In this document: in pieces, positions 16,414 to 23,194 of the stretch
Layout of the letters: each line of letters starts with the position of its first letter
Numbering within the stretch: the first letter of the stretch is position 1
Made by a program: the position numbers and the translations under genes
Notes under the pieces: generated by a model
Databases searched by the model: none
Seen by the model: the letters and a program-made list of their open reading frames with translations, nothing else
Told to the model about the DNA's origin: nothing
Assembly: GCA_024546615.1 (NCBI GenBank)
Contig: GCA_024546615.1_5040.1
From: Escherichia coli
GTDB lineage: Bacteria > Pseudomonadota > Gammaproteobacteria > Enterobacterales > Enterobacteriaceae
DNA: 47,767 nt
Reading direction: 5' to 3' (one strand)

Positions 16414-16924
16414 AATCTTTGCGGCTCTCAGGCCGCATATACTCAACGTGACGGGCGTCAGCGAGTGTATCCTTGCCGACCCCAACGGACCGTCTCCGGA
16501 CGGCCCATACGCGTCTGTGCGTCCACGTCAAAGTATCCGTGAGCGCGGTCAGGCGAACATCATCATGACCGACGGTGCAAATGATACTATCGTGTACGAA
16601 GTCCGCGCGCAGATTGTCGCATCCTGTGAAATTAATTTCTTCCGTGGTGAAGCAATGCGGTACGCCGAAATGCTGAAGGAATGCCACAAGCGCCCGGACG
16701 TGTGCTGGTCCCTGTGGCAAAAGGGGATTGGCTGGGGTGGCACTGAACCGGTTAACAACCTGACAGCGCTGCAGGCGAGCAACTTTGAACAGCGTGCGCA
16801 GATCATCGTTAAACTGCTTTACGAAGCGGTGAATACGGTGACAGTGAATAACATTCTGCACGTTCCGGTTAATGTGTGGGACGAGTACAACAGAGTATTA
16901 CTTTCTGATGAAATTTCGATATAA
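16400..16924 (+). CDS. Hypothetical tail-associated protein
   Basis: Track ORF begins at TTG 16388; first ATG at 16400. Confidence 0.45.
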   Translation: MTNNEIFAALRPHILNVTGVSECILADPNGPSPDGPYASVRPRQSIRERGQANIIMTDGANDTIVYEVRAQIVASCEINFFRGEAMRYAEMLKECHKRPDVCWSLWQKGIGWGGTEPVNNLTALQASNFEQRAQIIVKLLYEAVNTVTVNNILHVPVNVWDEYNRVLLSDEISI

Positions 16925-16964
16925 TGGTCAACGTGTGCACACTGTAACTTACGAGGACTCGTAA

Positions 16965-18101
16965 ATGTCTTTTCCAGTTGAACAAATCATCCCAATCACG
17001 ACCCGGATTTCTCCGGCGGGATTGGGTACAGCAAACTTCGCTTCCGCGATGTTGTTTGCTAAAAACTCCGAACTCCCGAGCGGTTTCACCAAAGACACGG
17101 TTCGTACCTACTATTCCACCTCTTCTCTCGCCGCTGACTTTGCCCCCACGACCGAGACGTACCAGGCCGGTGCCAAGTTCCTCGGCTCCACCCCCGCGGT
17201 ACCGAAACTTACCGTGTGGGCCACCGCTGACGATGATGCGGATATCAAAGCGACGCTGGCTAAGGCGTTCGATAAGCATTACTGGTACTGGACGCTTTTC
17301 ACCAAAGACGTGCTGGCAACAGAGGCAAACGTATTGTCGATTGCATCCTGGTGTGAAGAGAACAGTGTCATGTTCCCGAACAGCCAGACCGGTGAGGCTG
17401 TGGCTAAAATTCGCAACCCTGACGCCAGCGATGACATCTGTTCACAGCTGAACACGCTGGGCTATCGTCACGCGTTTACCGTTGCTCATGCAACCGACCC
17501 GTATGCGGCCTATGCGCTCATCAAGCATTCTGCCTCAGTCAATTACAGCGCTGATAACAGCACTATTGACACTGAGTTTAAAAAATCTCCGGGTGTTGCT
17601 GCCGAAGACCTGTCCGACACCGAACAGAATGCGATGGTCACCAAACGTTGCGCATTCTACAGCGTGCTGGACCTGCAAGGTAGCACCGACAGCGGTCGCT
17701 GGCTGCAAACGTGGTCGCACAGTACCTACGGCGAGTCTATTTCCGATATCGTCGATTTGGACGCATTTGTGAACTCTCTGCGTGTGGAACTGTACAACAC
17801 TATCGTTAACCAGACCACCAAACTTCCGCAGACTCCGGTCGGTCAGGAAGCGCTCATCGGTGCGGCTAAACGTGTCGGTAAACAGTACATCCGTAACCGT
17901 TATCTCGGTCCGCGCAAATACACCAGTCCTGACACCGGTCTGGAAGCGTACACCGATGGCTTCGAAGTGCTGACCAAAGCGACGGATATTCTCGACCTGT
18001 CCGATTCTGACCGCGCGGCGCGTAAGTCTGCACCGATTAACATGCGCGTGTTCAAAGCTGGTAGTGTCCGTATCTGTGACGTCACAGTCGACGTTTATTA
18101 A
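16965..18101 (+). CDS. Putative tail sheath-like protein
   Basis: 378 aa gene immediately before a 138-aa tube-like gene, chaperone and tape measure; assignment by gene order and size only. Confidence 0.4.
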   Translation: MSFPVEQIIPITTRISPAGLGTANFASAMLFAKNSELPSGFTKDTVRTYYSTSSLAADFAPTTETYQAGAKFLGSTPAVPKLTVWATADDDADIKATLAKAFDKHYWYWTLFTKDVLATEANVLSIASWCEENSVMFPNSQTGEAVAKIRNPDASDDICSQLNTLGYRHAFTVAHATDPYAAYALIKHSASVNYSADNSTIDTEFKKSPGVAAEDLSDTEQNAMVTKRCAFYSVLDLQGSTDSGRWLQTWSHSTYGESISDIVDLDAFVNSLRVELYNTIVNQTTKLPQTPVGQEALIGAAKRVGKQYIRNRYLGPRKYTSPDTGLEAYTDGFEVLTKATDILDLSDSDRAARKSAPINMRVFKAGSVRICDVTVDVY

Positions 18102-18114
18102 TGGAGAATGACCG

Positions 18115-18531
18115 ATGTCATTAGAAAACTTTTCCACAAGTAACACGGTCATCACAATTAATGGCCGAATCATTACTGATTTTGGCGAGTCTGACCCGCC
18201 GTACACCGACGAGCCGATTGACGCATCCACTGCATTACGCCGTGGTCTGGGTGGTAACGCTATTCGTCTGGACCGCATCAACCCGGGTCGTCGTGTCACG
18301 CTGAACCTCAACCCCGGCTCGGCTGACTCCGCGTATATCAACGGGCTGTTTCTGAGCAAGGCCAACATTGAATTGACCTATACTCAGATTGGTACACTTG
18401 ATGCCGCCGTCGGTGCGGAAGGTGTGATTGTGAACGATGGTCCGCGTGGGCGTGGTGGTCAGACGATTACCGATGACCAGTGGATTTTTGAGTTCAATTC
18501 ATGGACTGCGACAAAGGGTCCGGCAAGCTAA
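18115..18531 (+). CDS. Putative tail tube protein
   Basis: 138 aa; follows sheath-like gene; RBS GGAGA. Confidence 0.45.
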   Translation: MSLENFSTSNTVITINGRIITDFGESDPPYTDEPIDASTALRRGLGGNAIRLDRINPGRRVTLNLNPGSADSAYINGLFLSKANIELTYTQIGTLDAAVGAEGVIVNDGPRGRGGQTITDDQWIFEFNSWTATKGPAS

Positions 18532-18536
18532 ATGAA

Positions 18537-18569
18537 AGGGGCCTGATGGCCCCTTAATTATTTTCTTTT
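18537..18569. terminator. Bidirectional intrinsic terminator
   Basis: Hairpin AGGGGCC-TGAT-GGCCCCT followed by T-rich tract; sits between convergent genes. Confidence 0.6.
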
Positions 18570-18806
18570 ACTCCGAATGTGAAAGTCTGCTTTACCCATC
18601 ATATCTTTACGCCAGCAAACGCCGGTACCCATATACGCCGGGTCGTCACTTTCCGCATAACCAAATTCATTTTCATGATATGTGCAAATCGTGTCGGTCT
18701 GCCCGTCATAAATCTGGAATTGCTCACCTTGTTCAGCGTGGGCGCTGTTGCAGTAAATTGTTACAGCCATGATGACTGCTAACTGAATTTTAAATTTGTG
18801 AATCAT
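18558..18806 (-). CDS. Small secreted protein (moron candidate) with signal peptide
   Basis: MIHKFKIQLAVIMAVTIYCNSAHA then EQ...; Cys-containing mature part; own promoter and terminator; antisense to tail genes. Confidence 0.5.
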   Translation of the reverse strand: MIHKFKIQLAVIMAVTIYCNSAHAEQGEQFQIYDGQTDTICTYHENEFGYAESDDPAYMGTGVCWRKDMMGKADFHIRSKRK

Positions 18807-18836
18807 TTTGTACTCTCCTGTTGTTCTGTTGGGGTA

Positions 18837-18865
18837 ACTATAGCTCATCTTGACGAGTCCGTCAA
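18837..18865 (-). promoter_or_regulatory. Sigma70-like promoter TTGACG-17-TATAGT overlapping palindrome TTGACGAGTCCGTCAA (18850-18865)
   Basis: Spacing read directly; drives secreted moron gene. Confidence 0.55.
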
Positions 18866-18925
18866 TAATTGATTGATGATTTCGCCAAGTGTACACTGTA
18901 ACGACTAACAACCGGAGAAATAACA

Positions 18926-19300
18926 ATGTCACTTGTTAAAACTTTTACCGCAGGCGATATCACAGTGAACGCCGCGATGCCTTCCGCAATTGAGCAGGAC
19001 GAACTGCTATCCCTGGTGAGCGCACAGTTTATCGCACACGCCGCTAACGTTTACAAAAACGGTGGTGAACTCGGTGTTAAAGATGTAACGCTGTTGCTCA
19101 CCGCTGTACCGCACCATATCAAGCAACGTATTGTCGAGGTGCTCCTGAGCAAAGCGATGGTAGCGGGTACCAACACGAAAATTACAGTGAATGATTTCCC
19201 CGGTAAAATGATGACGCTGAATACTCTGCTGGCTGAATTGTTTCTGTGGATTTACGCTGATTTTTTCGATTACGTGCAAAACGCAAACAAAGACGAGTAA
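18926..19300 (+). CDS. Tail assembly chaperone (gpG/gpE-like)
   Basis: 124 aa gene between tube and tape measure; slippery heptamer near 3' end. Confidence 0.55.
   Translation: MSLVKTFTAGDITVNAAMPSAIEQDELLSLVSAQFIAHAANVYKNGGELGVKDVTLLLTAVPHHIKQRIVEVLLSKAMVAGTNTKITVNDFPGKMMTLNTLLAELFLWIYADFFDYVQNANKDE
19261..19267 (+). promoter_or_regulatory. Putative -1 programmed ribosomal frameshift slippery site T_TTT_TTC
   Basis: Heptamer in X_XXY_YYZ register of chaperone frame; -1 frame is open from 19261 to 19521. Confidence 0.45.
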
Positions 19301-19521
19301 GGGGCACCGGTCGACCCAGCCCGGTCAACTGGTACTTCATGCGGGTTTGCACGGGTATCGAAGGAGTGTGTCCACCTCTTTGTACATGGGCGCAGTTAAA
19401 AGATGGTACAATATCGCTTGCTGAAGTCGAACAATTTCACTTTGCGATGGATGAATTGCAGGGTAAGTATATTGAGGCGATAAACAATGCAAGAAATTCC
19501 CCTAAACAACGGCGCGGCTAA
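19261..19521 (+). CDS. Frameshift extension of tail assembly chaperone (gpGT/E+E'-like product)
   Basis: -1 frame open for 86 codons from the slippery site; contains track ORF 19339-19521. Confidence 0.4.
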   Translation, partial: FFRLRAKRKQRRVRGTGRPSPVNWYFMRVCTGIEGVCPPLCTWAQLKDGTISLAEVEQFHFAMDELQGKYIEAINNARNSPKQRRG

Positions 19522-19783
19522 CGCCCATCAGACCTTCACGGTCAAGCTGGGCGACAACGTTCTCGACTTTGCGCTGGATTACATCAGCTATACCGACAAG
19601 CCCGCGTGGACAATGACTGTTTCACAGGATGGTATCAACTACATCACCGGTGCAATGCTTGTTCCAAACGCTGAGGTCAGCAAAGCATACCGCGCCGGAC
19701 TGGGTCGCTTCTTCTTTGTGGGCGATGAGGTAACCATCGACAACCTCGGCGTTGATAACCATCTTCTGTGGGTGCCTGAATAA
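19487..19783 (+). CDS. Hypothetical protein (98 aa)
   Basis: ORF between chaperone extension and tape measure; stop overlaps tape measure start. Confidence 0.4.
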   Translation: MQEIPLNNGAANAHQTFTVKLGDNVLDFALDYISYTDKPAWTMTVSQDGINYITGAMLVPNAEVSKAYRAGLGRFFFVGDEVTIDNLGVDNHLLWVPE

Positions 19784-21120
19784 TGGCTAATGTGATTACG
19801 CAGTTTCTGGTCGGTCTCGGCATCTCTTACGATGGTAAAGGTGCTGAACAGGCTGAAAAAGATATCGACAACCTCGGCAAATCGGCGGAGCAAGCCGGTA
19901 GTCGGATGGACGATGTTGGCAAGTCCCTCGACCAGGGTGTTAAAACTGGTGTAGAAAATTCAAAATCGCGCATCATGAGTCTGGTTGCCACATTTAAAGG
20001 TGCCGGACTTGCTATGTCCGGTGTTGCCGCAGGTGTCGGCGCAGCGTGGGCGTTTGAGTCGAAGAAAGCACAACAGGCTTACGACCTGAACAACCAGCTT
20101 GCAACCAGTCAGTTCGGACCGACTGAGGTTTACGGACTTGGCGCACTGGCTGAACAGCGTGGCGGCGACCGGCAAGCAACGACAAACAGTCTTTTAAATA
20201 TCGAGCGTGGAATTAACCGCATTCAGACCGGTGACGCCGGGATGATTCAGCAACTGGCGGTTGCAGGAATTCGTGTTGATAACCCCACAGGGCGTACACG
20301 CGAGGGTATTTACAGTGACATCGCCGGGCAGTTCCAGCGCCTCGATACGACACGTCAGAGCAACGTAGCGGATATTTTAGGTCTCGACCCGGCTACCGTC
20401 AGAGTATGGCAGGAGTTCGGCGCTACAACGCTGGAAGTGTCAAAAGCCCGCGCCGCTGAACTGGGTTACACCGAGAAGCATAATGCGGCACTGGATGCAA
20501 TCAATCAGACCATAATTGACACTCAACAGAAAATGGAAGGACTGGGTAACACTATTGCAGATGTTCTCGCACCCAGCATCAAAACCTTGTCCGACAGTTT
20601 CCTGTCTGCTGCCACTGGTTTTACAAACTGGCTGAAAGCACACCCCGATTTACCGACAGATATCATAAGTGGCAACTGGTACGATAAGTATATTGTTGGT
20701 AGTGCCAATGATACGGCAGAGTGGATCAAGGAGAAAACAGGCTTCGACACTCGGAACATTGGGAGGTCTTTTAGCGCTGAGAATAATCCACCAAAACCAG
20801 ATTACGACTATACCCGGAAGCCGGAAGATAAACCGTATCAATCATTCGTGTGGCAGCAACCAGCGAAAGATAAAAGTATAACCAACGACGGTTCGTATGG
20901 CGCTGAAGCGAGTCCGATGACCGATAACTACGCTCAGCAAAGTCGGCAGATGAGTCAGATTATGGAATCCATAAACCGTCCGATTCAGCTTAACGGCAAT
21001 TTCACCACACAGGGTGACGTGATACTGGACGGTAACGCAATTGGCCGCTACACCGTGAATCATCTCGAGACACAGGTGTATCCACAGGCGATTGACCAGA
21101 CCCGGCAAAGGAGTTATTGA
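19783..21120 (+). CDS. Tail tape measure protein (short, 445 aa)
   Basis: Position after chaperone pair; helical Ala/Gln-rich sequence with hydrophobic segment. Confidence 0.5.
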   Translation: MANVITQFLVGLGISYDGKGAEQAEKDIDNLGKSAEQAGSRMDDVGKSLDQGVKTGVENSKSRIMSLVATFKGAGLAMSGVAAGVGAAWAFESKKAQQAYDLNNQLATSQFGPTEVYGLGALAEQRGGDRQATTNSLLNIERGINRIQTGDAGMIQQLAVAGIRVDNPTGRTREGIYSDIAGQFQRLDTTRQSNVADILGLDPATVRVWQEFGATTLEVSKARAAELGYTEKHNAALDAINQTIIDTQQKMEGLGNTIADVLAPSIKTLSDSFLSAATGFTNWLKAHPDLPTDIISGNWYDKYIVGSANDTAEWIKEKTGFDTRNIGRSFSAENNPPKPDYDYTRKPEDKPYQSFVWQQPAKDKSITNDGSYGAEASPMTDNYAQQSRQMSQIMESINRPIQLNGNFTTQGDVILDGNAIGRYTVNHLETQVYPQAIDQTRQRSY

Positions 21121-21122
21121 CA

Positions 21123-22547
21123 ATGGATTTGCGCCAGTATGAAATACTCATTGATACAAAGAATTTCATTACACAGTCGTACCCGATGCTTCGGTGCTCG
21201 TTCGATGTGACAACGTATACCGGTGACAGCCTGAGTACCTGTGAGTTTCGCTTGTGGAACCTTGCGCCCACAACGAAGATTGAACCGAATCAGACCGTTG
21301 TTTTTCGCGCCGGGTATCAGTCGCGCATCGGTCAGATTTTTACCGGGTTTGTCACCAACGTTTTCACCATTCGTGACGGTACTGACATCATCACCCGTGT
21401 GACGTGTCGCAGCGGCAGTAACGTGCTCGACGGTGGGACAACGAGTGCGAGTTTCGGTAAGAGCGTGACATTATTTGACGTCTTGACCAGTCTCGCACAG
21501 GACTGGTCGAAACCGTTATATCTTGTCAATAGTGTGGACAAATTTACCTCCATTGTCATGGCTGGGGGCTATAACGTCAGCTCCGATATCAGTAAGGAAC
21601 TTGACATTCTGGCCAAAGCATACGGCTTCGAATGGCATCTGTACGCCGGACAGGTGTTCGTCGGATTTCCATCTGATGAACGTAAAGCCACGCCCATCAA
21701 AATCAGTTCCGCCACCGGGATGATTGACGCACCCACGCTTCACGGCGGCATTGATGGCGTATTCTGTGACGTTAAAATGCGTCTTGACCCCCGTATGACA
21801 CCCGCATCAGTGCTTAATATTGAATCTAAATGGCCTAAATTCGATTTCGGCGCGGTAGAATTCCAGTCAACCGTTGACGCTAAACTGGAAGGTGACTGGA
21901 ACGTTCAGACCATTCAACATACCGGCGACACACACGGTCCCGACTGGTACACGTTTGTCAAAGCTGTGCGCGCCGGGTCAATGGATACCACCACGACAAA
22001 TACTGATGTTGGTAATCGCCTCATTTACGGTCGTGTTGGCGTGCAGGGTGAGGACGCCAGTCAGCAGCAGGATTTCCGTACCGAGGTGCGTAAACTTGGG
22101 CAAAGTCTGGGTATCAGTCCAAACTGGATCATGGCTGTAATCTCTGCGGAGTCTAACTTCAATCCGCAATCAAAGAACAGTAAATCTGGCGCAGTGGGTC
22201 TGATTCAGTTTACTAATGCTGGTTGGACGAGTGCGTTTCAGAGTAAGTATGGTCGTAATAAAAATATCATACTGTCAATGACTGCAGCCGAACAGGTCAG
22301 AGGTCCTATTACTGATTATCTCAATCAGTACAAAGGGCGTTACAAAACGATGGGCGATGTGTACATGGCTGTATTTAGTCCGGCATTCATCGGTAAACCT
22401 TCCACTACCGTGATGTACACGTCACCGTCCAGAGCGTACAATCAGAACGCAGGGCTTGACACGGACCATAAAGGTTACATTACCGTCGGTGACGTGTGGC
22501 GGCGTGTTGAGGAACGATTCAGACAAGGTAAGGCGTACATGTTATGA
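21123..22547 (+). CDS. Tail protein with C-terminal lytic transglycosylase (SLT) domain
   Basis: C-terminal AVISAESNFNPQS...GAVGLIQF motif; RBS AAAGGAG; track ORF starts at TTG 21117. Confidence 0.6.
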   Translation: MDLRQYEILIDTKNFITQSYPMLRCSFDVTTYTGDSLSTCEFRLWNLAPTTKIEPNQTVVFRAGYQSRIGQIFTGFVTNVFTIRDGTDIITRVTCRSGSNVLDGGTTSASFGKSVTLFDVLTSLAQDWSKPLYLVNSVDKFTSIVMAGGYNVSSDISKELDILAKAYGFEWHLYAGQVFVGFPSDERKATPIKISSATGMIDAPTLHGGIDGVFCDVKMRLDPRMTPASVLNIESKWPKFDFGAVEFQSTVDAKLEGDWNVQTIQHTGDTHGPDWYTFVKAVRAGSMDTTTTNTDVGNRLIYGRVGVQGEDASQQQDFRTEVRKLGQSLGISPNWIMAVISAESNFNPQSKNSKSGAVGLIQFTNAGWTSAFQSKYGRNKNIILSMTAAEQVRGPITDYLNQYKGRYKTMGDVYMAVFSPAFIGKPSTTVMYTSPSRAYNQNAGLDTDHKGYITVGDVWRRVEERFRQGKAYML

Positions 22548-23194
22548 GTTTAATTAACCTTCTGGTAAAGCGCGGCCCACAGCTTGGGTCGCTTCAGTTC
22601 GATGCCGTCCTGTCTGATGACCTTGATGCCAGCGTGGATATCGTGCAGTACCCCATTGAGACAGGTACGCCAATTGCAGACCACATTATCTATCAGCCTA
22701 TTCGTTACACGATGACAGGTGCGGTATCGAACAACCCGTTGAAAGTTAGTATCACCGATTTCACCGGGGTATTGACAAATCTCGTCGATGATAATCCGTT
22801 CATTGCAGCGGGTGCCGGTCTGTTCGCGGGGTGGTTAAGCGGCTCGAATGAAACTCGCTCCAGTACGACACTGAACACTTTGCTTGATTTCATGTACTCC
22901 GGGCAGGTATTCACAGTGGATACGGGTGAAATCACGCTGAATAATATGGTCATTCAGCGTATCGGGCGCTCTAAAGACCCGGAGAATGAGAACGGACTGA
23001 TATTTGTTGCTGAACTACAGCAGATTGTCACGCTTGACCGCGTGGCGAACGGTTCACAACCGGCACAATATCAGCTGAACAGTAACGACGTTTCCAGCAC
23101 ATCCATATCAGGACTGATTGAGCGTGGTTACATCAATGTGAAAACAGCTGCAACGAATGTTGCTGACCAGGTTACGACACTTTTGGATTTGTAA
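22544..23194 (+). CDS. Putative baseplate/tail assembly protein (216 aa)
   Basis: Stop/start overlap with upstream gene; position in baseplate module. Confidence 0.45.
   Translation: MSLINLLVKRGPQLGSLQFDAVLSDDLDASVDIVQYPIETGTPIADHIIYQPIRYTMTGAVSNNPLKVSITDFTGVLTNLVDDNPFIAAGAGLFAGWLSGSNETRSSTTLNTLLDFMYSGQVFTVDTGEITLNNMVIQRIGRSKDPENENGLIFVAELQQIVTLDRVANGSQPAQYQLNSNDVSSTSISGLIERGYINVKTAATNVADQVTTLLDL

Follow-up and report, generated by a model that had tools for sequence, protein, structure and literature searches.

The window, by which we mean the whole 47.8-kb stretch of DNA analysed here, was assigned from its sequence to a Jedunavirus-like myophage, a Klebsiella-type phage with a contractile tail, and displayed ~93% identity to members of the genus including MMNM/MEW1. 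Its tail genes were arranged in the order sheath, tube, (moron), G, T, plug and tape measure, all on the plus strand with the exception of the moron, which sits on the minus strand between the tube gene and G. The tail sheath gene (16965..18101) matched Pfam DUF3383/E217_gp31 (E 2.6e-26) and is annotated as 'tail sheath' in ZCEC13 and KpV52. Directly 3' of it, the tail tube gene (18115..18531) matched the virion structural protein family phrog_280 (E 1.7e-25), an adjacency of sheath and tube that corresponds to the FI/FII order of phage P2. The tape measure protein gene (19783..21120, 445 aa) was recognized through phrog_21358 (E 6e-259) and several other tape measure phrogs, and its relatives carry the same annotation. 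Between the tube and tape measure genes lies a pair of overlapping ORFs, as in gpG/gpGT loci; two insertions break the tube-G-T-tape measure order of the window, namely the moron before G and the plug gene after T. In Vibrio phage 24 and in Psychrobacter pOW20-A, the tape measure gene directly follows T.

The first ORF of the pair, G (18926..19300, plus strand, zero frame, 124 aa), matched phrog_9141 (E 1e-56) and was 42% identical to ORF-27 of Edwardsiella MSW-3 (E 3e-31). Its identification as a tail assembly chaperone gene in the original prediction was borne out by profile comparisons and by the Pfam matches of its relatives. Syntenic proteins positive for Phage_TAC_15 aligned with the Jedunavirus G profile at an hhalign probability of 97.6% (E 3.6e-12), and the Vibrio and Psychrobacter syntenic proteins scored 63.8, 30.6 and 26.8 bits against PF21822 Phage_TAC_15, for a gathering threshold of 22 bits. 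G of MSW-3 reached 18.6 bits, under this threshold, and G of the window gave no match to PF21822 at E <= 0.01; the latter thus appears, on profile evidence, to be a remote homologue of Phage_TAC_15, below threshold-level membership. A sequence search of the PDB with the G profile returned only noise (best E 0.31), an NCBIfam scan of the G, T and plug proteins gave zero matches, and the AlphaFold2 model of G, built on a 16-sequence alignment, was too poor for its fold to be judged (mean pLDDT 52, pTM 0.37). The homologue of G in the genus is MEW1_16. The mass spectrometry table of MMNM virions holds ORFs 10, 11, 17, 18 and 19 and not ORF 16, which, if the MMNM_ numbering equals the MEW1_ numbering as we infer, would place the chaperone outside the virion, absence from such a list being weak evidence.

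As originally described, a 98-aa ORF (19487..19783, plus strand) lies between the -1-frame extension and the tape measure gene, and it overlaps the end of T by 35 nt. Its product matched PF22479 (E 5.6e-13, 49.7 bits; gathering threshold 24.2 bits), residues 1-97 aligning to positions 1-100 of the 101 profile positions, and it is a homologue of Pam3 gp18, the baseplate plug that is present in six copies between hub and wedge (PMC9942802). Its counterpart MEW1_17/MMNM_17 was detected in virions. Since the place of the plug gene relative to the tape measure gene varies among related genera, its presence before the tape measure gene is a rearrangement rather than an anomaly, and does not weaken the frameshift reading developed below.

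The slippery heptamer T_TTT_TTC (U_UUU_UUC) at 19261..19267 was indeed in the X_XXY_YYZ register of the ORF 18926-19300, where the sequence reads ...GCT GAT TTT TTC GAT... and the heptamer consists of the wobble base of Asp112 followed by the codons of Phe113 and Phe114. The -1 frame was confirmed to be open over 86 codons, from 19261 to the TAA at 19519-19521, and it overlaps G by 40 nt. It opens right after a TGA (19258..19260), a stop shared by most but not all relatives, and because of this stop productive entry into the -1 frame is confined to 19261-19300. The extension T itself covers 19267..19521 (plus strand, 84 codons and the stop). The -1 ORF of the window is four codons longer than in all sampled relatives (82 codons), owing to a TAA to CAA change at 19507-19509. 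A second in-register heptamer, TTTCCCC at 19195, was discarded: the -1 frame entered there stops at 19258, and the motif is not conserved. No upstream Shine-Dalgarno-like stimulator was seen on inspection of 19244-19260.

A U-run at the homologous codon was found in all 58 distinct related loci, which belong to several genera, as U6C (42 loci), U7 (9), U9G (1) or U5 (6), and we regard this conservation as decisive for the reality of the slip site. Among 29 close and mid-distance loci, the heptamer occupied the same codon at G identities as low as 51%; Edwardsiella MSW-3 and Vibrio phages have U7 or U9 at this place, and across the whole conserved arrangement the identity of G drops to 14-27% in the alignment. 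The two Phe residues of the slip site account for two of just five invariant columns of the G alignment. The first U of the heptamer appears to be under selection as well, since the Asp codon that provides it was GAT in every one of the 35 GC-rich lineages, whereas GAT and GAC are used evenly (127 GAT:128 GAC) elsewhere in the same genes. The class H_HH.U_UU.Y, including U_UU.U_UU.Y, is an efficient frameshift class in E. coli, and the tetramer U_UUU ranks among the three best ribosomal tetramer motifs (PMC4066793); the six U5 variants are of this tetramer type. Orthologues lacking an open -1 frame had been named beforehand as evidence that would speak against the prediction; comparison with related phages showed that all orthologues possess an open -1 frame together with an in-register, U-rich slip site.

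The search for a downstream stimulatory structure, also proposed at the outset, yielded a candidate with a z-score near -3, and covariation brought no proof of it. This candidate stem-loop (19273..19353, plus strand) has outer arms forming a perfect 8-nt inverted repeat (CGUGCAAA at 19273-19280 and UUUGCACG at 19346-19353), an inner hairpin at about 19306-19325 and a spacer of 5 nt to the heptamer. Its minimum free energy in the window was -33.8 kcal/mol (z -3.07), so that a stable fold exceeding shuffled sequences stands at the spacing expected of a stimulator. Among relatives, L025 gave z -3.53 and MSW-3 gave z -2.45, the latter with a comparable long-range stem, and no equivalent significant fold was seen in L023 or in the Vibrio relatives. 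The covariation test was uninformative for the outer helix because its 12 pairs are invariant. The inner hairpin has one compensatory pair, a result equalled by 26-35 of 500 shuffles. Invariant degenerate wobble sites made up 4/8 paired against 0/12 unpaired columns (Fisher p ~0.014, calculated by hand), and a cross-genus alifold, limited to six sequences, yielded no more than a short stretch of conserved CGCA/UGCG pairing, in which two or three pairs were compensatory. An Rfam scan of 19100-19700 gave no family. With almost no covariation support, the structure stands as a candidate.

The most probable reading of the locus, to which we give a probability of roughly 0.8, is an ordinary gpG/gpGT-type -1 frameshift in the chaperone gene of a Jedunavirus-type phage, yielding G and a G-T fusion. 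It builds on the sequence anatomy, its conservation and the -1-frame coding constraint, all directly observed. Two tail-assembly chaperones would thus very probably be made from one gene by a ribosomal -1 slip at the U-run. Most ribosomes would terminate at 19298-19300 and release the 124-aa protein, while a minority would slip by -1 with tRNA-Phe bound to the UUU in the P site and to the UUC in the A site of U_UUU_UUC, both tRNAs re-pairing on UUU UUU. From there, -1-frame translation would resume at CGA (19267) and run to 19521, giving a predicted GT fusion of 198 aa composed of G residues 1-114 and the 84-aa T domain. The extended stem-loop, with its base 5 nt downstream, may boost slip frequency. 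If the functions parallel those of lambda gpG/gpGT and P2 E/E+E', the tape measure protein would be coated by the G part and the tube protein recruited by the T part. Correct polymerisation of the tube would then be set by a constant, low ratio of GT to G, and neither protein would be present in the virion. The predicted junction tryptic peptide of the fusion is MMTLNTLLAELFLWIYADFFR, its G counterpart is MMTLNTLLAELFLWIYADFFDYVQNANK, and 19267-19338 encodes in the -1 frame a peptide such as VRGTGRPSPVNWYFMR.

The same fusion could in principle arise during transcription, if RNA polymerase added one U on the T-run so that part of the mRNAs carried T in frame. The protein product would be identical, and sequence analysis cannot tell the two routes apart. 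The site is always a homopolymeric U-run, reaching U7 and U9 in relatives, and E. coli genes are depleted in UUUUUUU in every frame, for which transcriptional slippage may be the reason (PMC4066793). However, the run of the window counts only six U's and that of six lineages only five. Efficient slippage by bacterial RNA polymerase is reported for runs of about 7-9 or more. Moreover, all 58 runs are in a register permitting cognate tRNA-Phe re-pairing, the U5 variants still make the ribosomal tetramer U_UUU, and a possible stimulatory stem at 5-nt spacing suits the ribosomal route. Transcriptional slippage as the source of the fusion is consequently considered improbable.

Another explanation is that translation of the downstream ORF starts at the ATG at 19339, making it a small gene of its own from which no fusion arises (60 aa in the window, 56 aa in the KpV52 annotation). 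Several GenBank records annotate it in this way (KpV52 gp34; 'hypothetical protein (x2)' rows), short ORFs of this kind served to build the PHROG and Pfam families, and a Met is found at this position in many lineages. All database matches to T were short ORFs of 47-91 aa, bar one spurious low-complexity protein of 504 aa, and none of the database hits matched a G-T fusion or a natural in-frame G-T protein. Against an independent gene, no ATG, GTG or TTG occurs between 19261 and 19339, the latter being the sole in-frame ATG, and the window has no Shine-Dalgarno-like sequence before it. The second ORF of the pair is in the -1 frame, overlaps the first and has no initiation signals of its own, as is typical of gpG/gpGT pairs. 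The ATG is not conserved, being replaced by Ala or Trp codons in Vibrio and several other lineages, whereas the basic linker peptide encoded between the G stop and the ATG is conserved across genera. The 38 nt of this interval evolve as -1-frame coding sequence: T-frame wobble positions made up 10 of the 14 variable sites in 19301-19338 (p 0.004), as they did 33 of the 43 in 19339-19486 (p 7e-9). Within the overlap, only 4 of 43 sites were variable, against 55% upstream, and variability at G-frame wobble positions fell from 97/110 upstream to 2/14 (p 2e-8). These patterns indicate purifying selection acting on the -1 ORF in that frame, including the part 5' of its only ATG, and together with the 58 conserved slip sites they support the gpG/gpGT (E/E+E') mechanism that had been proposed for this gene. 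An independent gene would also leave the universally conserved in-register U-run unexplained, and we judge it very unlikely.

The same data bear on the idea that heptamer and open -1 frame are functionless and the 186-nt gap non-coding: matches to TTTTTTY are not rare in the window (27 on both strands, not above shuffles), but the chance of one falling with the right strand and register inside the 40-nt overlap is roughly 0.5% by our own estimate, the T ORF matches a protein family, and the strong -1-frame codon-position signal, with conservation of heptamer, frame relation and T peptide in 58 distinct loci of several genera, leaves such a coincidence effectively refuted.

Profile searches place the -1 ORF in the conserved family phrog_4364 / DUF6889 (phrog_4364, E 7e-20). 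With 19.9 bits, the T of the window misses the gathering threshold of PF21829 DUF6889 (23.9 bits); it aligns with the T proteins of Vibrio phage 24 (43 bits) and Psychrobacter (28.7 bits). DUF6889 is interpreted here as a T domain.

Lambda produces its gpG and gpGT chaperones through programmed -1 frameshifting (Levin 1993; Xu, Hendrix & Duda 2004, 2013, 2014, summarised in PMC5009743). In both lambda and the window, two ORFs that overlap precede the tape measure gene, an arrangement conserved despite sequence divergence, and the absence of the lambda chaperone from virions may extend to the group of the window on the basis of the MMNM proteome. The slip site of lambda is G_GGA_AAG, that of the window U_UUU_UUC. 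Unlike lambda, the window phage is contractile-tailed; it also has two intervening genes, the plug gene, which separates T from the tape measure gene, and the moron, which lies on the minus strand and separates the tube gene from G. No similarity to lambda G or T was detectable, Pfam scans giving TAC_15 and DUF6889 only.

Phage P2, whose E/E+E' pair belongs to the FETUD operon (Christie et al. 2002, cited in PMC3091744), shares with the window a contractile tail and the order sheath, tube, chaperone. P2 slips by -1 at GGT TTT TTG, in the same register and gene position as GAT TTT TTC in the window, some relatives of which read GGT TTT TTC, and its extension of about 50-80 aa is of similar size. 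The protein families differ: P2 E belongs to Phage_TAC_7 (PF10109) and E' to Phage_P2_GpE (PF06528), which are matched by P2 E+E' and not by the window proteins. Homology of T to E' was rejected (hhalign probability 0.6% for the T profile), and the resemblance to P2 thus seems to be one of mechanism only. The P2 site functions without a downstream structure (PMC3091744), whereas one is predicted in the window, and the P2 tape measure gene comes next with no gene in between, unlike in the window.

With IS3/dnaX-type signals, the window shares the succession of a heptamer, 5 nt and a stable stem, and some IS elements employ U_UU.U_UU.C too (PMC4066793). It differs from them by the long, irregular shape of its 81-nt stem-loop, which lacks proof by covariation, and by having no evident upstream Shine-Dalgarno-like element. 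The 'minimal' myophages Pam3, XM1 and MMNM have their set of tail and baseplate genes in common with the window, namely a sheath of the E217/DUF3383 type, a Dit-like tube initiator, a plug of the gp18 type and a hub; neither the Pam3 paper nor the MMNM paper mentions a chaperone frameshift.

A more speculative combination of these elements, which we hold to be rather doubtful, can be suggested. The invariant 81-nt stem-loop (19273-19353) might genuinely stimulate the slip and bring the GT:G ratio to an unusually high level in short-tailed 'minimal' myophages, making the signal more elaborate than those of lambda and P2. DUF6889 might then be a T domain reached only via U-run recoding in Jedunavirus, Yokohamavirus, CP-T1-like and other Vibrio phages sampled, and in relatives with U7-U9 the shift could be partly transcriptional.

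The mechanism is a well-known one in phages, textbook knowledge since 1993-2004, and no concept is changed by its occurrence here. It was unannotated in every database record inspected: the feature tables of nine related records had no joined CDS at the G-T locus, and no fused product name appeared across a listing of 60 related records. In the searchable literature, the frameshift was reported neither for Jedunavirus or Pam3 nor in the paper on the CP-T1 'dwarf myovirus', and the announcement of phages 24 and X29 reports a G/GT frameshift for X29 only. Recognition of the frameshift would give a function to phrog_9141, phrog_4364 and Pfam DUF6889 (T domain), and would supply a missing essential tail-assembly protein to models of 'minimalist' myophages. 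Any recoding or engineering of these phages would have to keep the U-run and the overlap. In the inspected feature tables of Jedunavirus, Yokohamavirus and CP-T1-like phages, the chaperone gene is followed by a 186-nt 'gap' or by a spurious small ORF; the records inspected include Klebsiella and Vibrio phage therapy candidates.

The 124-aa chaperone ORF G (18926-19300) reads ...TAC GCT GAT TTT TTC GAT TAC... at the putative slip site, which places the TTTTTTC heptamer at 19261-19267 in the predicted X_XXY_YYZ register (T_TTT_TTC). As also predicted, the -1 frame is open for 86 codons, from a TGA at 19258-19260 to a TAA at 19519-19521. Owing to this TGA, entry from the zero frame is possible only within 19261-19300, a stretch whose single canonical heptamer is right at the beginning. 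Another in-register heptamer of the chaperone gene, TTTCCCC at 19195-19201, is probably not functional, since a -1 shift there would end at the TGA at 19258 and the motif is missing from several relatives.

We favor the reading, with a probability of about 0.8 based on comparative sequence data, that -1 recoding at 19261-19267, most likely on the ribosome, produces a fusion between G and the -1 frame extension T. In its simplest form, two tRNA-Phe would slip by -1 in tandem on U_UUU_UUC, the CGA at 19267 would be decoded next and translation would continue in the T frame, giving a predicted fusion of 198 aa (114 + 84 residues). Heptamers of the H_HH.U_UU.Y type belong to the most efficient motifs in E. 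coli, where U_UU.C and U_UU.U are the tetramers in second and third place; some IS elements make use of U_UU.U_UU.C (PMC4066793).

In 29 loci covering G identities from 98% down to 51%, the heptamer occupies an identical codon position, at an offset of 335 from the start, and in each of them a -1 ORF of 67-86 codons begins at the heptamer. The T peptide matched 334 phage records in tblastn searches, mainly from Vibrio (247) and Klebsiella (65), as well as from Edwardsiella, Pectobacterium, Iodobacter, Psychrobacter and other hosts. In-register U7 or U9 runs occur at the G-T junctions of Edwardsiella phage MSW-3, Vibrio phage 24 (CP-T1-like) and Vibrio phage 1.173.O. A wider set of 58 distinct junctions, gathered from IMG/VR, comprised 42 TTTTTTC, nine TTTTTTT and one TTTTTTG inside a U9 run; the remaining six have TTTTTCC or TTTTTCG and keep the in-register tetramer U_UUU. 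Loss of the canonical heptamer with retention of this tetramer, as in the five-U clade formed by loci L084, L086, L087, L093, L104 and L109 (GAT TTT TCC or GAT TTT TCG), suggests slippage by a single tRNA. In the distant relative Psychrobacter phage pOW20-A (locus L034, 2414-2489), a Phage_TAC_15 gene is associated with a -1-frame DUF6889 ORF; the canonical heptamer is absent and the only in-register U_UUU tetramers are ACT TTT G and GGT TTT A. Only five columns of the G alignment, in which identity otherwise drops to 14-27%, are invariant, and the slip-site Phe pair accounts for two of them. Furthermore, the Asp codon giving the first U is GAT in 35/35 GC-rich lineages (GC3 above 0.6), versus 127 GAT and 128 GAC at the other Asp positions of these genes. 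Slippage of RNA polymerase on the U-run could yield the same protein, and a transcriptional contribution may exist, especially in the U7-U9 relatives. As the main route it is nevertheless unlikely, because the six-U run of the window, the five-U variants and a register that is tRNA-compatible in every case favor the ribosomal route.

Site variability among 26 distinct Jedunavirus-type sequences was in agreement with translation of the -1 frame. Upstream of the site, 55% of G positions are variable, with the skew to G-frame wobble of ordinary coding sequence, versus 4/43 in 19258-19300 (heptamer and overlap), as expected if the segment is dual coding and also carries a signal; at G-frame wobble positions, 97/110 vary upstream and 2/14 here (Fisher p 2e-8). 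T-frame wobble then accounts for 10 of the 14 variable sites between the G stop and the first in-frame ATG (19301-19338; p 0.004) and for 33 of 43 in 19339-19486 (p 7e-9), both indicative of -1 frame coding. Independent initiation at ATG 19339, implied by GenBank records that annotate the T ORF as a free-standing 56-aa gene (KpV52 gp34), is thus quite improbable: the -1 frame lacks ATG, GTG and TTG codons from 19261 up to 19339, no Shine-Dalgarno-like sequence lies 5' of ATG 19339, the basic linker preceding it (RLRAKRKQRR...VNWYF) is recognizably conserved in other genera, and its Met is replaced by Ala or Trp in several lineages. A meaningless coincidence of heptamer and open frame is hardly credible: TTTTTTY is not rare (27 matches on both strands of the window), but its chance of occurring in the 40-nt overlap on the correct strand and in register is estimated at ~0.5%, a U-run or tetramer is present at 58/58 junctions, and no orthologue lacking an open -1 frame, the counter-evidence named in the original prediction, was found among the relatives compared.

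Within the T ORF, 22 nt (19397-19418), including six wobble positions in a row, do not vary among the 26 sequences. This segment includes TGGTACAAT, similar to an extended -10 promoter element, and might function either as a promoter within T that serves the plug and tape measure genes or as an RNA element; its nucleotide-level conservation is absent in the related locus L023. A 77-aa partial protein (P0016; 658-bp contig), which NCBI labels Staphylococcus haemolyticus, shares 96% identity with the T region; most likely, the assembly is contaminated with a Klebsiella-phage fragment.

The search for a downstream stimulatory structure, proposed as a check, yielded a candidate stem-loop. A perfect 8-nt inverted repeat (19273-19280/19346-19353), beginning 5 nt 3' of the heptamer, closes an irregular stem-loop (MFE -33.8 kcal/mol); folding of the 93 nt following the site gave a z of -3.07, with 2/200 equally stable shuffles. 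The z was -3.53 in locus L025 and -2.45 in MSW-3, which has an analogous long-range stem, and no significant fold was found downstream of the site in L023 and the two Vibrio phages. The 12 outer pairs never vary within Jedunavirus, so that covariation is uninformative for them. In the inner hairpin, a single C-G pair is exchanged for G-C as a compensatory change and some pairs show G-U replacements, but a few pairs are mismatched, including one in the window. Of the degenerate T-frame wobble sites 3' of the G stop, 4/8 in predicted paired columns are invariant, versus 0/12 in unpaired ones (Fisher p ~0.014, hand-computed). Cross-genus alifold on six sequences retained CGCA/UGCG pairing, flanked by two or three compensatory pairs, and Rfam gave no match for the structure. 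It is plausible that the stem-loop at 19273-19353 acts as a frameshift stimulator.

The window, from a Jedunavirus-like contractile-tailed phage, shares ~93% identity with Escherichia phage ZCEC13 and Klebsiella phages KpV52, JD001 and SBP over 16900-21200. G (phrog_9141) follows the genes for sheath (16965-18101; DUF3383/E217_gp31) and tube (18115-18531; phrog_280) and a minus-strand moron (18558-18932; phrog_31975). The true start of the moron is likely close to 18806, where the encoded N-terminus (MIHKFKIQLAVIMAVTIYCNSAHA) resembles a signal peptide. The gene is furnished with a sigma-70-like promoter of its own (TTGACG-17-TATAGT, 18865 to 18837) and with a hairpin terminator (18536-18555); relatives carry other cargo in this slot (Ant anti-repressor, DUF551 and HNH/DUF723 genes).

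Pfam and PDB sequence searches with G gave no match, and its AlphaFold model (pLDDT 52) was too uncertain for use. G shares 42% identity (E 3e-31) with the syntenic protein of MSW-3, and syntenic proteins of Vibrio 1.173.O, Vibrio phage 24 and pOW20-A score 30.6, 26.8 and 63.8 bits against PF21822 Phage_TAC_15 (gathering threshold 22 bits). A profile of 16 Jedunavirus-type G proteins matched the alignment of these three over its whole length (97.6% probability, E 3.6e-12); on such profile evidence, G groups with Phage_TAC_15 and not with Phage_TAC_7. T (19267-19521; phrog_4364, E 7e-20) belongs, by its weak profile match, with DUF6889. The virion proteome of the Jedunavirus MMNM/MEW1 includes ORFs 10, 11, 17, 18 and 19 (sheath, tube, plug, tape measure, hub) and does not list ORF 16, the G homologue (numbering equated by inference). 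This fits a chaperone that is not retained in the completed tail, like gpG and gpGT of lambda (PMC5009743).

The likeness to gpG/gpGT or E/E+E' was borne out, as far as sequences can tell, in mechanism and genome position. Arrangement and position are those of lambda (PMC5009743) and P2 (PMC3091744), whereas G and T fall outside the sequence families of both. P2, likewise contractile-tailed, slips in its corresponding gene at GGT TTT TTG (PMC3091744; record features and sequence), and its E' has no profile similarity to T. No joined CDS was present in the feature tables of nine related records, no fused product name in a 60-record listing and no fused protein in the collections searched. The literature search found no frameshift report for Jedunavirus, Pam3 or the CP-T1 group; the phage 24/X29 announcement reports one only for X29, which is unrelated. 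Since the mechanism is standard and unannotated in the records examined, the G/T frameshift constitutes a correct and useful annotation of a known kind, unsurprising to specialists.

The 98-aa ORF reported between the extension and the tape measure gene is present at 19487-19783 and matches PF22479, the Pam3 gp18 baseplate plug, over its full length (Pam3_gp18, 49.7 bits). Six copies of gp18 are wedged between hub and wedge proteins in Pam3 (PMC9942802), and the MMNM counterpart was detected in virions. Tape measure protein (TMP; 19783-21120; phrog_21358, E 6e-259), SLT-domain hub (21117-22547) and Dit-like tube initiator (22544-23194) genes follow. The order of plug, Dit and tape measure genes is shuffled among related genera (window 19487-23194; L023, L031, L033, L034): G-T-plug-TMP-hub-Dit in Jedunavirus, G-T-Dit-plug-...-TMP in MSW-3 and L023, and the canonical G-T-TMP-Dit-plug in Vibrio phage 24 and pOW20-A. 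The G/T pair remains directly after the tube gene region despite this shuffling. Judged from gene order, the plug position is a lineage-specific rearrangement and does not weaken the chaperone reading. In the window, CAA replaces the TAA at 19507-19509, so that the T ORF extends 35 nt into the plug gene; the change adds four codons (QRRG) and is synonymous in the plug gene (AAT to AAC). T stops at this TAA in every other sequence sampled, even in SBP, which is the nearest relative across the frameshift region (99.2% identity, 19230-19480).
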